DNA of 64,000 bases from NCBI GenBank assembly GCA_963767525.1, contig CAVYEH010000002.1, positions 58,149 through 122,148 on the forward strand, read 5' to 3'. Of the stretch, positions 13,762 through 62,890 are shown in pieces. Position 1 is the first letter of the stretch. Each line of letters opens with the position of its first letter. Source of the DNA: an uncultured Actinomycetes bacterium (GTDB taxonomy: Bacteria > Actinomycetota > Thermoleophilia > Gaiellales > Gaiellaceae). The notes beneath the pieces are model-generated. The model was not told where the DNA came from. It made no database searches and saw nothing but the letters and a program-made list of their open reading frames with translations. The translations under genes were made by a program, and so were the position numbers.

Positions 13762-14798
13762 GTTACCTCGCGCTCGAGGACGGCACGGTCTGGCCCGGCG
13801 AGTCGGTCGGCGCGGACGGCCACGCGCCCACCTATGCACTCGGCGAGGCCGTCTTCACGACCGGCATGTCGGGCTACCAGGAGGCGGTCACCGACCCGAG
13901 CTTCGAGGACCAGCTCATCTGCTTCACGGCGCCGATGGTCGGCAACTACGGCGTCGCGGACGAGCGCGACGAGTCGGCGACGACGCACGCACGCGCGGTG
14001 CTCATGCGCGAGGCGCGCGGCCCCGAATGGACCGACTGGCTCCGCGAGCACGGCATCGTTGCGCTGACCGGGATCGACACGCGGAGCCTCGTCCTCCACC
14101 TCCGCGAGGCGGGCTCTGCGCTCGCGATCGCGGTTGCCGGAGACATGCCCGTCGACGAGGCGATCGAGCTAGCGCGTCGACAGCCGCCGATGCTCGGCCG
14201 CGCGCTCATCGCCGGCGTCTCGACGCCCCAGTCGTACGTCTTCGCGCCGGAGGGACGCGTCTCGGTCGGCGTCGTCGACTACGGCGTGAAGAACTCCGTC
14301 TTGCGCCGCCTCGCGAAGGCGGGCGCGAAGGTCACCGTTCACCCGCACGACGTCGACGCAGACACGCTCGCGGCGCACGACGGTGTCCTCCTCTCGCCGG
14401 GGCCAGGCGACCCTGAGCCGTTGACCGGCGAAGCCAAGACGGTCGAAGAGCTGCTCGGCCGCACGCCGGTGCTCGGCATCTGCCTCGGCCACCAGCTCAT
14501 CGCTCGCGCGACCGGACACGAGACCTACAAGCTCCCGTTCGGCCATCGCGGCGCGAACCACCCGGTGCTCGAGCGGCAGACAGGTCGCGTCCTCGTCACG
14601 AGCCAGAACCACGGCTTCGCGGTGCGCGCGACAGAAGCCGCCGAGGCGTCGCACGTCTCGCTTTATGACGGCACCGTCGAAGGTCTCGACTTCCCGGAGT
14701 TGCGCGCGCGGTCGCTCCAGTTCCATCCCGAAGCCGGCCCCGGCCCGCACGACGCGTGGTCGCTCATCGAGACGTGGGTGGCTGACCTTGCCGCGTAG
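13758..14798 (+). CDS. carA: Carbamoyl-phosphate synthase small (glutaminase) subunit
   Basis: …LGICLGHQL… GATase motif; ATG overlaps the pyrC stop. Confidence 0.9.
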
Positions 14799-17700
14799 AA
14801 CCGACATCGAATCGATCTGCATCCTCGGCTCCGGCCCGATCGTGATCGGGCAGGCGGCGGAGTTCGACTACTCCGGCTGCCAGGCGCTGAAGGTGCTGCG
14901 GGCCGACGGCTTCCGCACGATCGTCATCAACTCGAACCCGGCGACGATCATGACCGATCCCGGCTTCGCCGACCGGACGTATCTCGAGCCGCTCGACGTC
15001 GAGTCGGTTGCCGACGTGCTGCGGCTCGAGCGGCCCGACGCGCTGCTTCCGACGATGGGCGGCGGCACCGCGCTCAACCTCGCGCGCGAGCTCGCGGAGT
15101 CGGGCGTCCTCGACGAGCTCGGGATCGAGCTCATCGGCGCGCGCCTCGACGTGATCCAGCGCGCCGAGGACAGGCAGCTGTTCAAAGAGGCCGTGGAGTC
15201 GTGTGGGCTCAAGGTTCCGCGCTCGATCGCCATCACCGACATCTCCCAGCTCGAGGGGATTCCGGCGCCGGCGGTCGTCCGCCCGGCGTTCACGATGGGC
15301 GGCCACGGCGGCGGCTTCGCGTTCACCGAGGACGAGCTGCGCCGCCAGGTCGAGCGCGGCTTGGCCGAGTCGCCCATCGGCCAGGTGCTCGTCGAGGAGT
15401 CGATCAAGGGCTGGGACGAGTTCGAGCTAGAGGTCGTCCGCGACCGGCTCGACAACGTCGTCATCGTCTGCTCGATCGAGAACCTCGACCCGATGGGCGT
15501 CCACACCGGCGACTCCGTCACCGTCGCGCCGCAGATGACGCTTTCCGACGAGGCGTACCAGGAGCTCCGCGACGCGGCGATCGCGATCATCCGCGCGGTC
15601 GGAGTCGACACCGGCGGCTCGAACATCCAGTTCGCGCGCTCGCGCGAGACCGGCGAAGTGCGCGTGATCGAGATGAATCCGCGCGTCTCCCGCTCGTCGG
15701 CGCTCGCCTCGAAGGCGACGGGCTACCCGATCGCGAAGGTCGCCGCGCGGCTCGCCGTCGGCTACACGCTCGACGAGATCCCGAACGACCTGACGGGGAC
15801 GACGCCCGCGAGCTTCGAGCCGACGCTCGACTACGTCGTCGTGAAGTTCCCGCGCTTCGCGTTCGAGAAGTTCCCCGGCGCGGATCGGACGCTTGGGAAC
15901 GCAGATGAAGTCGGTGGGCGAGACGATGGGGATCGGCCGAACGTTCGCGGAGGCGTTCCTCAAGGCGTTCCGTTCGCGCGAGCTCGACGCCGGCGCCGCG
16001 ACACCGTGGCAGACGCTCGCCGACGTGCCCGCCGACGTCCATCCGTTCTTCCAGCGCGAGCTCGACCGGATCTTCGCCGGGCTCGAGTCGGTCGGCGACA
16101 TCGAGACGCTCGTCGCGGGCGACTGGCTCCGCCTCAAGCGGCTGGGTCTCTCCGACGCGCAGATCGCCGCAGCAGCGGGGACGACGGAGCAGGCCGTCCG
16201 CCACCGTCGCCGCGACTGCGAGGTCAAGCCGGCGTACCGGCGCGTCGACTCGTGCGCGGGCGAGGTCGAGGCGGCGTCGAACTACTACTACTCGACGTGG
16301 GGCGAGGTCGACGAGGCTCCTCCCGGAGGCGCGAAGCCGCGCGTCGTCATCCTCGGCTCCGGCCCGAACCGGATCGGCCAGGGCATCGAGTTCGACTACT
16401 GCTGCGTCCACGCGGTGACGACGTACCGCGAGCTCGGTTACGAGGCGGTGATGGTCAACTGCAACCCCGAGACGGTCTCGACCGACTACGACACGTCCGA
16501 CCGCCTCTACTTCGAGCCGCTCGACGCCGAGTCGGTGCTCGCGATCTGCGAGCGGGAGAAGCCCGTCGGCGTCGTCATCCAGTTCGGCGGCCAGACACCG
16601 CTCAAGCTCGCGCGCATCATCGAGGACGCCGGCTACAAGATCCTCGGCACGCCGTTCGACGCTGTCGACCTCGCCGAGGATCGCGAACGGTTCGCCGGCC
16701 TCCTCAAGGCGCACGGCCTGCGTTCGCCGGAGTGGGGGATCGCCGCGACGCCCGACGAGGCCGTCGAGATCGCCGAGCGCATCGGATATCCGGTGCTCGT
16801 CCGCCCGTCGTACGTCCTCGGCGGCCGTGCGATGCGCGTCTGTTACGACGCCGACGACGTGCGCAACATGCCGCCGTTCGAGCGCATTCTCGTGGACCGC
16901 TTCGTCGAGCACGCGGTCGAGATCGACGTCGACGCGCTGTGCGACGGCGTCGACACGTACGTCGCCGCGGTCATGCAGCACATCGAGGAGGCCGGCGTTC
17001 ACTCCGGCGATTCGTCGTGCATCCTCCCGGCGCCGAGCCTGAGCTTCACGCAGGCGCAGGAGGTGTCGCGCATCGTGAAGATCCTCGGGCGCGCGCTCGG
17101 CGTCGTCGGTCTGCTCAACGTCCAGCTCGCGGTGACGGGCGACGGCGAGGTGTACGTCCTCGAGGCGAACCCGCGCGCGTCGCGGACGGTGCCGTTCGTG
17201 AGCAAGGCGACCGGCGTCGAGCTCGTCAAGGCGGCGTGCCGGCTCGCGCTCGGGTCGAGCATCGCCGATCTCGCCCTGCCGCAGGAGCGGCCGCCGCGGC
17301 AGTGGAGCGTCAAGGCCGCTGTCCTCCCGTTCGCGCGCTTCCCCGGCAGCGATCCGGTGCTCGGGCCGGAGATGCGCTCGACCGGCGAGGTGATGGCGAG
17401 CGCCGCCGACCTCTCGACCGCGCTCGACAAGGCCGAGCGCGCTGCGGGGCGCCGCCTGCCGCGTTCCGGCTCCGTCTTCATCTCCGTGCGCGAGCTCGAC
17501 AAGACGTCTGCCGTTCCGATCGCCGCGACGCTCGCCGGGCTCGGCTTCGAGCTCTACGCGACGGAGGGAACTGCCGCGACGCTCGCCGCCGCCGGCATCG
17601 AGGTCGAGGCGCTCCGCAAGCTGAGCGAGGCCGCGGAAGGCGAGCCGACCGTCGTCGATCTCATCCGCCGCGGCCGCTGCGACCTCGTCATCAACACGCC

Positions 17701-61231: not shown

Positions 61232-62890
61232 TGGGCGTTTGCCGGATCATCCCGCTCGGCGGCCTCGGCGAGGTCGGCAAGAACATGACCGTGTACGAGG
61301 CCGACGGCGCGATCGTCGTCGTCGACGCCGGTCTGGCGTTCCCGCGCGACGAGCACCTCGGCGTCGACCTCGTCCTGCCCGACTTCTCGTACCTGCGCGA
61401 GCGCGAGGAGATGGTGCGCGCCGTCATCCTCACGCATGGCCACGAAGACCACGTCGGCTCGCTTCCGTACCTCATGCGCGAGGTGCAGGTGCCGCTCGTC
61501 ATCGCGACGCGCCTCACGCTCGCGCTCGTCAAGTCGAAGCTCGACGAGCACGGCCTCGCCCAAGCCGCCGAGCTGCGCGAGCTCATGCCGGGAGACGATC
61601 CGCAGCAGGTCGGCCCGTTCCGCATCGAGATGGTGCGGATGGCGCACTCGATCCCCGACTCGGCCGCCGTCGTCCTCGAGACGCCCGGCGGGCGCTGCGT
61701 CCACACGGGCGACTACAAGCTCGACCACACGCCGGTCGACGGCCAGCGCACCGACGTCGGCCGCCTCGCCGAGATCGGCAGCCAGGGAGTCGACCTGCTC
61801 CTCGGCGACTCGACGAACGCCGAGCGCGCGGGCGTGACGCAGTCGGAGCGCGTCGTCGGCGAGGCATTCCGCCAGATCTTCCCGCAGCGCACCGGCCGGA
61901 TCATCGTCTCGTCGTTCGCGTCGAACGTCCACCGCATGCAGCAGGCCGCCGATGTCGGCGTGAGCTGCGGCCGCAAGGTCGCGTTCGTCGGCCGCTCGAT
62001 GCGGAAGAACGGGAACATCGCGCGCAGCCTCGGCTACATGGACATTCCCGACCACGCGATCCTCAACCCGAAGAATCTCGCCGACCTGCCGCGCGACCAG
62101 CAGCTCATCCTCTGCACCGGCAGCCAGGGCGAGCCGATGTCGGCCATGACCCGCATCGCGTACAACGACCACGGCCAGGTCAAGGTCGAGGCCGGCGACA
62201 CGGTGATCATCTCCGCGAAGCCGATCCCGGGGAACGAGCTGCGCGTCCACGACGCGATCAACCGCCTCGCGAAGATGGGCGCCGAGGTGCTGCACGAGGA
62301 CAACGCGCCCGTGCACGTCTCCGGCCACGGCAAGGCGGAGGAGCTGCGCACGATCATCGGCCTCACGCGCCCGAAGGCGGTGATGCCGATGCACGGCGAG
62401 TTCCGGATGCTCGCCGCGCACGCGCAGATCGCGCGCGAGGGCGGCGTTCCCGACGACCGCATCATCATGGCCGAGAACGGCACGGTCGTCGAGCTACGCG
62501 ATGGTGTTCCGAACGATCGTCGACGAGGTTCCGGCCGGGATGACGTTCGTCGACGGCCTGGGAGTGGGGGACGTCCACGACGTCGCGCTCCGCGACCGGC
62601 GGCGGCTCGCCGAGGACGGCGTCCTCATCGTCGTCGCGACGGTGGCGATCGACGACGACGAGGGCCTGACCGCGCCGCCGGAGCTCATTGCGCGCGGCTT
62701 CGGCGAGGGGGCCGAGCCACTCCTCGAGGAGCTGCGCGAAGAAGCGAACCGCGTCCTCCGCGACCTGCTCGAAGGCGACGTGACCGAGATCAAGCTCCTC
62801 CAAGAGCACCTGCATGAAGCGCTCGGGAAGATCGTCTACAACCGCACGCGCCGACGCCCGATGATCCTGCCGGTCATTGTCGAGGTCTGA
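61231..62890 (+). CDS. rnj: Ribonuclease J (frameshift ~62505)
   Basis: Metallo-beta-lactamase HGHEDH, beta-CASP, RNase J C-terminal domain; ATG overlaps the dapA stop. Confidence 0.85.

Follow-up and report, generated by a model that had tools for sequence, protein, structure and literature searches.

The 64,000-nucleotide stretch of DNA analysed here (the window; positions 58,149 to 122,148 of contig CAVYEH010000002.1 in assembly GCA_963767525.1) comes from a Gaiellaceae genome and raises the question of whether a bacterium can really carry interrupted copies of so many of its genes, including the indispensable infB, rpsO, carB, dapA and dapB, or whether the interruptions belong to the record rather than to the organism. 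The window has a G+C content of ~70% and a gene order of pyrR-pyrB-pyrC-carA-carB-pyrK-pyrD ... nusA-infB ... rbfA-nrnA-truB-ribF-rpsO-pnp ... M16 peptidase-dapB ... dapA-rnj, and it also contains the operon of a [NiFe] hydrogenase of group-3b type, hyp maturation genes included. Its NusA shares 79-97% identity with proteins from metagenome-assembled genomes (MAGs) of uncultured Gaiellaceae/Thermoleophilia, and its nearest DNA relative, at 86% identity, is locus L031 from a MAG of the Microflora Danica (MFD) set. Several of its proteins are found letter for letter on a single contig of 892,256 bp (NCBI/ENA) from an uncultured soil lineage. We detected ~35 frame changes in 17 genes of the window, or one per 1.8 kb, and we consider it very probable that they arose as consensus errors in the assembly of long metagenomic reads and are not mutations in the organism; the assembly was most probably a Nanopore-only one (metaFlye followed by a single Medaka round, the procedure of the MFD set). 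The extra bases are present in the record and missing from every related sequence examined, and their removal restores intact, conserved genes.

Frame changes were sought by composition (GC3 frame plot, Viterbi segmentation and codon-pattern segments), by comparison of the window with open reading frames (ORFs) translated from 160 related loci (tblastn and a custom frameshift-aware protein-to-DNA aligner), and by profiles whose coordinates were tracked from frame to frame (Pfam domains and equivalog, NCBIfam and TIGR profiles). False frame switches at gene boundaries, arising from antisense and stop-to-stop ORF queries, were removed, and all spanning orthologues had to agree; in the accessory genes (HD-GYP and GAF-GAF-GGDEF), shifts were added by reading the three frames by eye. 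At ~70% G+C, off-frame ORFs remain open and ORF lists therefore mislead, so that carB, for example, appears intact as an ORF of 1066 aa despite its internal frame change. The initial annotation had described frameshifts in a list of genes between positions 14788 and 62890, and four independent checks (composition, orthologues, profiles and DNA alignment) agree with it, the three composition methods alike finding the switches within genes at the positions it gave. Those positions proved to be right to 0-15 nt (carB at 15897/8, pnp at 39248/9, rpsO at 37159, infB at 27456/7 instead of 27463, and pdp at 28940 instead of 28925). Most events do lie within that range, but three precede it (1183 in the epimerase gene, about 5905 and about 5985 in the HD-GYP gene), and to the listed genes, which are hit, must be added a serine hydrolase gene on the minus strand (35987-37044). 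The individual sites are collected in Table 1.

Single-base insertions make up ~29 of the 35 events (about 85-90%), and insertions outnumber deletions by ~30 to 1. The earlier statement that the event is always an insertion where it can be reconstructed thus holds for the great majority; the others include at least one two-base insertion of CG/GC (50850-51), one apparent one-base deletion (about 50658, in hydB) and four events that are either +2 or -1 (in the HD-GYP and serine hydrolase genes and two in the GGDEF gene). The genes hit most often are hydB, with 10 events, and the GGDEF gene, with seven. Aligned with L081, a short-read contig to which it is 88.7% identical, the window carries one extra base at 10 places, two extra bases (CG) at one and zero one-base deletions, the remaining indels being multiples of three or intergenic. 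The events are strongly clustered, 39.2-43.5 kb containing 11 of them, 50.5-53.7 kb containing 14 and the other 56 kb containing 10, and their variance-to-mean ratio of 5.0 was reached by none of 20,000 uniform simulations. No events were seen in the orthologue- or profile-checked parts of 7.2-15.8, 17.9-27.4, 29-36, 43.7-50.5 and 53.7-60.3 kb (9.0-10.8 and 30.2-32.9 kb lying outside the orthologue check), and there are no indels relative to the short-read contig L165 in 7.2-9.0 or 10.8-11.8 kb.

When the extra bases are taken out, the result is 20 repaired proteins with zero stop codons and, where lengths were compared, normal ones (S15, 89 aa; DapA, 294; Pdp, 431; HydG, 281; HydD, 258). Repaired HydB, the product of 10 repairs, matches more than 100 intact homologues of 377-382 aa with up to 86% identity over 100% of the length (E = 2e-218), and the cysteine motifs of the Fe-S subunits fall into register. 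The seven repairs of the GGDEF gene give a GGDEF match of 141 bits over profile positions 1-159/161, as against 41 and 61 bits for the unrepaired fragments, and the GAF-GAF-GGDEF and HD-GYP motifs likewise become complete and stop-free. The two sides of the shifts are 70-95% identical to orthologues, and the identity before and after the shift is similar in carB (79/72%), infB (70/75%) and pnp (80/80%).

These properties bear on the possibility that the frameshifted genes are pseudogenes in the process of being lost, which we regard as very unlikely. The interruption of 17 of about 60 genes, some of them repeatedly, might be taken to indicate such decay, as in Mycobacterium leprae, where many interrupted genes also occur in a short stretch, and the dense clusters could mark dispensable loci. 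Gene decay in bacteria is, however, deletion-biased, whereas insertions predominate here; and the mixed spectrum that decay would leave, of nonsense codons, truncations and large deletions, was not found in the window, which contains small insertions and at most a few -1 events. Unlike the decay of the M. leprae type, the events hit essential genes, including those of translation, at sites that are unique to this assembly, and they leave conservation equal on both sides of each shift. The hydrogenase alpha subunit and hyp maturation genes near the frameshifted beta, gamma and delta subunit genes are intact, the repaired HydB is full length, and the type of lesion tracks the sequencing method and not the lineage, as described below. 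The frame changes are almost certainly consensus errors, and the genes hit should therefore not be called pseudogenes, as the initial annotation had also advised.

Independent sequence is available at several levels of relatedness. The repaired S15 of 89 aa is present letter for letter in public data, its carriers being three short-read contigs (L162-L164, from JGI and ENA assemblies) with 90-96% nucleotide identity to the window; all three lack G37159 of the window, which has AAGGAAGCAGAAG where they read AAGGAA-CAGAAG. All 11 insertions of 50.85-53.64 kb are missing from L081, and none of the sites of the window is shared with relatives among the 160 related loci. Nine further repaired proteins (two versions each of the cNMP-binding protein, HydG and DapA, together with HydD, DapB and Pdp) were looked up by exact match, and none is in the collection. 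The best match to repaired HydB is only 86% identical, and there is therefore no sequence of the same strain in the database. Positions 22039-24192 are matched at 100% by a 2,154-bp Logan contig from run ERR11748454, in a stretch that is without a frameshift site.

The same comparisons make it extremely improbable that the cell reads through the shifts by programmed +1 frameshifting, transcriptional slippage or editing. Nearly all of the shifts are in the +1 direction, as in the programmed frameshift of prfB, and two sites have a 12-mer, GGGAACGCAGAT, in common. In contrast to prfB, there is no conserved site or shift-prone motif: no site recurs in any orthologue from the 160 related loci, no slippery, homopolymeric or common motif was found among 26 sites examined, and the short-read relatives carry the unshifted sequence. 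Many sites occur within single genes, and ten shifts in one gene of 1.1 kb are incompatible with known programmed frameshifting.

The relationship between lesions and sequencing technology was examined by searching the repaired proteins of the window (20 genes) against all 160 fetched loci, which comprise 41 loci from MFD MAGs, 39 from other genomes and 80 metagenome contigs. The MFD MAGs were assembled by metaFlye from Nanopore R10.4.1 reads only, at a read-coverage cut-off of 8, and polished in one Medaka round without short reads (PMC12313526). Their loci contain 47 frame switches in 142,838 aa (0.33 per 1000 aa), 40 of which are +1, as against one in 86,038 aa (0.012 per 1000 aa) in the other MAG and genome loci and one in 72,170 aa (0.014 per 1000 aa) in the metagenome contigs. 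Gene for gene within the family, frame switches are thus ~25 times commoner in Nanopore-only MFD MAGs than in short-read assemblies. In detailed alignment the MFD events resolve into 50 of +1, three of +2 (CG/GC) and nine negative ones; the inserted bases are 90% G/C, lie outside homopolymers and are clustered. The window, with 17 events in 8,041 residues of the same gene set, is within the MFD range, and its error signature is that of the MFD MAGs. Locus L016 has +1 clusters of its own (11 in infB and nine in nrnA, within 11700-15800), and L031 has three +1 frameshifts of its own (644, 1534 and 13006); public GTDB species representatives of the family therefore share the problem. The lesion spectrum, the independent sequence and this technology control together uphold the view, already put forward from the letters of the window, that the frameshifts are assembly consensus error rather than biology.

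It is unlikely, though somewhat less so than wholesale decay, that most of the events are errors and some of those in the GGDEF, HD-GYP and serine hydrolase genes are true mutations. These genes are without a close orthologue in the fetched loci, and four events in accessory genes are of the rarer +2/-1 kind. On the other hand, the remaining events in accessory genes have the same form as those in essential genes, a codon followed by one extra base; the repairs yield the complete and stop-free motifs mentioned above; and doublet insertions of CG/GC occur in the MFD control set too.

Single-base consensus indels that split intact genes, at a rate set by technology and coverage and missing in short-read relatives, are a familiar outcome of Nanopore-only assembly (PMC9262707). 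A study from the same group as MFD found that near-finished consensus from R10.4 data takes ~40-fold coverage and traced frameshifts to indels in the Nanopore consensus (PMC9262707); the remedy for such errors is polishing, either with short reads or guided by a reference. The classical artefacts of this kind occur in homopolymers, whereas the sites in the window have background run lengths and are mostly clustered insertions of G/C. The homopolymer context, which the initial annotation had suggested checking, gave a negative result: the longest run touching a site has a mean of 2.03 bases, against a background of 1.99, and the longest run within 2 nt is of one or two bases at 29 of the 35 sites, with a 5-base run only at the dapA site. 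A homopolymer origin of the indels was accordingly rejected. A methylation or k-mer motif was also considered, and the enrichment of GATC is unconvincing (six of 26 sites versus a background of 15%). The sequence GCAGA lies within 6 nt of five of 26 sites, versus a background of 2%, the motif being made by the insertion itself at two of those five, and the 12-mer noted above is common to the carB and dapA insertion sites (15886-15903 and 60962-60979); the two together hint at a component of sequence context in the error process.

Tentatively, and with more doubt than confidence, we can suggest a source for the extra bases themselves, namely that they may be strain polymorphisms written twice, a site that is X or Y in the population having been emitted as XY by the polisher. 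Most sites can be read as c1c2X|Y, in which c1c2X and c1c2Y are synonymous codons: GGG|A (carB, pnp, dapA), GTC|G (pdp, M16, dapB, hydG), GAA|G (rpsO) and ACA|G (infB, hydB), as well as CGC|G, GCC|G, CCC|G, GCT|C, GGC|T and TTT|C. A reading as a synonymous third-position pair is possible at 22 of 29 single insertions, compared with 41-49% of random insertions simulated in the intact genes of the window (binomial p about 0.001), with the proviso that placement among equivalent positions is partly subjective. This excess suggests tandem writing of both alleles. A likelihood-based polisher might score a single deletion shared by all reads as less costly than a rare C/G substitution carried by half of the reads, and the writing of both alleles in tandem would account for the insertion bias as well as for the clustering. 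The window would then resemble a case of mixed-strain consensus errors, a likeness that we infer from the clustering, the usual form of the extra base as a synonymous third-position alternative and the predominance of C/G pairs; no paper describing tandem-allele insertions as such was found. An argument from codon phase, based on our custom aligner, was discarded as evidence because that aligner places shifts only between codons, and it was replaced by the simulation, which is suggestive only. Three considerations count against the duplication of alleles: the placement of the sites is partly a choice, the three rpsO contigs all have GAA and none has GAG, and the recurrent contexts (the 12-mer and GCAGA) point to context-dependent error. 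If alleles were indeed duplicated in this way, variation within the sampled population could be read off the frameshifts of such MAGs, and the two hot spots (39-43.5 and 50.5-53.7 kb) would mark stretches shared with a co-occurring strain. A simple and reversible rule, by which XY is reduced to X or to Y wherever the third position is synonymous, would then repair a systematic failure in thousands of public Nanopore-only MAGs.

Several points weigh against the attribution of the frame changes to consensus error in a Nanopore-only assembly. The case is built from the comparison of assembled sequences, and the evidence that a site is wrong is indirect throughout. An accurate and near-identical comparator (90-96%) is at hand for rpsO only, the other sites being judged from relatives of 73-89% nucleotide identity. 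The sites lie outside homopolymers, unlike the classical Nanopore error mode, and true mutations could account for a few of the events in the accessory genes (GGDEF, HD-GYP, serine hydrolase). Neither run ERR11748454 nor the 892-kb contig is tied to a named project or sequencing platform; we infer the origin of the contig in a pipeline of this kind, and any membership in the MFD project, from the matching error signature. Given an origin in consensus error, the dense clusters probably represent stretches of poor read pile-up, caused by low coverage or by cross-mapping reads of a related strain.

The frameshifts are an artefact, and no new biology follows from them; their importance lies in annotation. 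Annotation would render seventeen genes, including infB, rpsO, pnp, carB, dapA, dapB, rnj and those of three hydrogenase subunits, as pseudogenes, fragments or fusions, and such misannotation would lower estimates of completeness and distort metabolic inference, as for hydrogen metabolism in the Gaiellaceae. The errors lie outside homopolymers, and homopolymer-aware fixes will therefore miss them. The problem is a general one for Nanopore-only MAGs of this high-GC family, and the finding is a useful warning to those who annotate MAGs of high G+C assembled from Nanopore reads only.

Table 1. Sites of frame change in the window (positions of the window; a vertical stroke in a sequence separates the codon from the extra base).
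Gene	Position	Strand	Change	Evidence
Epimerase (MR_MLE family)	1180..1187 (1183)	+	+1, frame 1 to 2; CGC|G or ACG|C in (CG)n stretch	MR_MLE_N frame 1, MR_MLE_C frame 2; three-frame reading
HD-GYP gene, second shift	5900..5912	-	net +2 or -1	HD-GYP motif three-frame reading; HD_5 ends at profile position 121/170 in one frame
HD-GYP gene, first shift	5980..5992	-	+1	GYPHALT in one frame, EAIPVEAGIVGLADAFDAMTTDRPY in next
carB	15888..15900	+	+1, GGG|A ACG CAG, extra A at 15897/8	7/7 orthologue alignments; NF003671 1-373 frame 1, rest frame 2
infB	27447..27457	+	+1, ACA|G AAC, extra base 27456/7	9/9 orthologue alignments; TIGR00487 7-234 then 237-585
pdp (pyrimidine-nucleoside phosphorylase)	28933..28942	+	+1 at codon ~24, GTC|G TTC, G at 28940	4/4 orthologue alignments
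Serine hydrolase (beta-lactamase family; gene 35987-37044)	36186..36232	-	net +2/-1 or two +1, variable linker	alignments with L001, L005, L020; Pfam Beta-lactamase
rpsO	37159	+	inserted G after codon 6, GAA|G CAG	L162-L164 read AAGGAA-CAGAAG; TIGR00952 1-86/86 on repaired S15
pnp	39244..39249	+	+1, GGG|A ATC, extra A at 39248/9	6/6 orthologue alignments; NF008805 to 492 frame 2, 493-681 frame 0
GAF-GAF-GGDEF gene	40570..40580	+	net +2 or -1, best read as GC/CG doublet	three-frame reading; repair restores GAF domain
GGDEF gene	40985..41000	+	net +2 or -1	three-frame reading
GGDEF gene	41360..41364	+	+1, TTT|C GGT	GGDEF profile 1-50 frame 1, 50-159 frame 2
GGDEF gene	41556..41562	+	+1, CCC|G or C4 run	three-frame reading
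GGDEF gene	41610..41615	+	+1, CCC|G GCC	three-frame reading
GGDEF gene	41645..41650	+	+1, GCT|C GCC	three-frame reading
GGDEF gene	41680..41686	+	+1, GGC|T CTC	three-frame reading
M16 peptidase, first	42635..42637	+	+1, GTC|G ATC	L080 orthologue alignment; Pfam M16_C ends at 138/181
M16 peptidase, second	42909..42911	+	+1, GAC|G CTT	L080 orthologue alignment, one guide only
dapB	43470..43475	+	+1, GTC|G ATT, G at 43474	DapB_C 1-47 frame 1, 57-121 frame 2
hydB (hydrogenase beta)	50572..50578	+	+1	orthologue alignments
hydB	50612..50615	+	+1, ACA|G GTG	orthologue alignments
hydB	50656..50660	+	-1, CTGGCG read as CTGCG	3/3 spanning orthologue alignments
hydB	50850..50851	+	two-base insertion CG	L081 DNA alignment; 8/8 protein alignments
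hydB	50917..50920	+	+1, CGC|G GTC	L081 DNA and orthologue alignments
hydB	50957..50960	+	+1, GCC|G	L081 DNA and orthologue alignments
hydB	51015..51018	+	+1, GCG|A	L081 DNA and orthologue alignments
hydB	51127..51128	+	+1, AGC|A	L081 DNA and orthologue alignments
hydB	51281..51284	+	+1, GAC|G	L081 DNA and orthologue alignments
hydB	51323..51324	+	+1, ACG|C, in CxxCxxC motif region	L081 DNA and orthologue alignments
cNMP-binding gene between hydB and hydG	51719..51723	+	+1, GAC|G	4/4 orthologue alignments; L081 DNA alignment
hydG (hydrogenase gamma), near N-terminus	52165..52170	+	+1	7/7 orthologue alignments; L081 DNA alignment
hydG	52499..52508	+	+1, GTC|G ATC, G at 52503	45 tblastn queries; 9/9 alignments; L081 DNA alignment
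hydD (hydrogenase delta), near C-terminus	53621..53648	+	+1, CGC|G, best position 53639	11/11 alignments; L081 DNA alignment
dapA	60970..60975	+	+1, GGG|A ACG CAG	DHDPS 3-212 then 211-287; TIGR00674 2-208 then 210-284; 5-base run
rnj (RNase J)	62494..62515	+	+1, possibly AAC|G ATC	Lactamase_B, beta-CASP, RMMBL frame 1; RNase_J_C frame 2

Some other features of the window deserve mention. In the hydrogenase operon, the cNMP-binding gene (51648-52119) between the beta and gamma subunit genes occupies the same place in the short-read contigs L081, L083, L087, L091 and L134. The hydrogenase alpha gene is followed by an intergenic element of 69 nt (55005-55073; CGTAGGCTCGACG...GAGCGGAGGCG...GGAAATGAC), and a similar insert of 68 nt occurs elsewhere in the operon of L081, at the gamma/delta junction (about 2280-2350); the element may be a small mobile intergenic repeat.

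An ORF on the plus strand at 8346-8987 is related to MerB and has an in-frame TGA (8772-8774) where MerB2 (PDB 5c17) has its catalytic cysteine, a position at which Cys is also present in three more distant full-length homologues. In independent assemblies, more than 100 homologues (75-90% identity) end at that TGA, as products of 142 aa, and the codon recurs in the short-read contig L165, which shows zero indels in this ORF. The TGA is followed after 15 nt by a hairpin with a GGUC loop, CTCTTCC-GGTC-GGAAGAG. Neither the SaoL nor the MerB cut-off of NCBIfam is reached by the protein, and the known SaoL family (Haft and Gwadz) has a CU motif and belongs to anaerobes. Judged from these sequence features, the gene probably encodes a putative, unannotated selenocysteine protein of the Gaiellaceae that is related to SaoL and distinct from it.

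An island of lower G+C (64-66%) with weak coding signal at 2700-5300, which includes a fragment of an IS1595-type transposase (3360-3809; profile positions 71-153 only), is likely to be the remnant of a mobile element. The tRNA-Arg(CCG) gene at 659-731, beyond which Rfam and tRNA scans of the window gave nothing, does not adjoin the island, the epimerase and DUF1611 genes (about 740-2730) lying between them. Between pdp and rbfA there is a block of 2.9 kb (30170-33030) that encodes an unknown protein and an SPFH/Band-7 protein of 685 aa and is missing at that position in L031, L080 and L039. Finally, the minus strand at 46970-49410 carries egtD (Methyltransf_33) and egtB (DinB_2 plus FGE-sulfatase) for ergothioneine biosynthesis, both of them intact, and these genes adjoin an intact ABC transporter of the glycine-betaine type at 43.7-46.8 kb.

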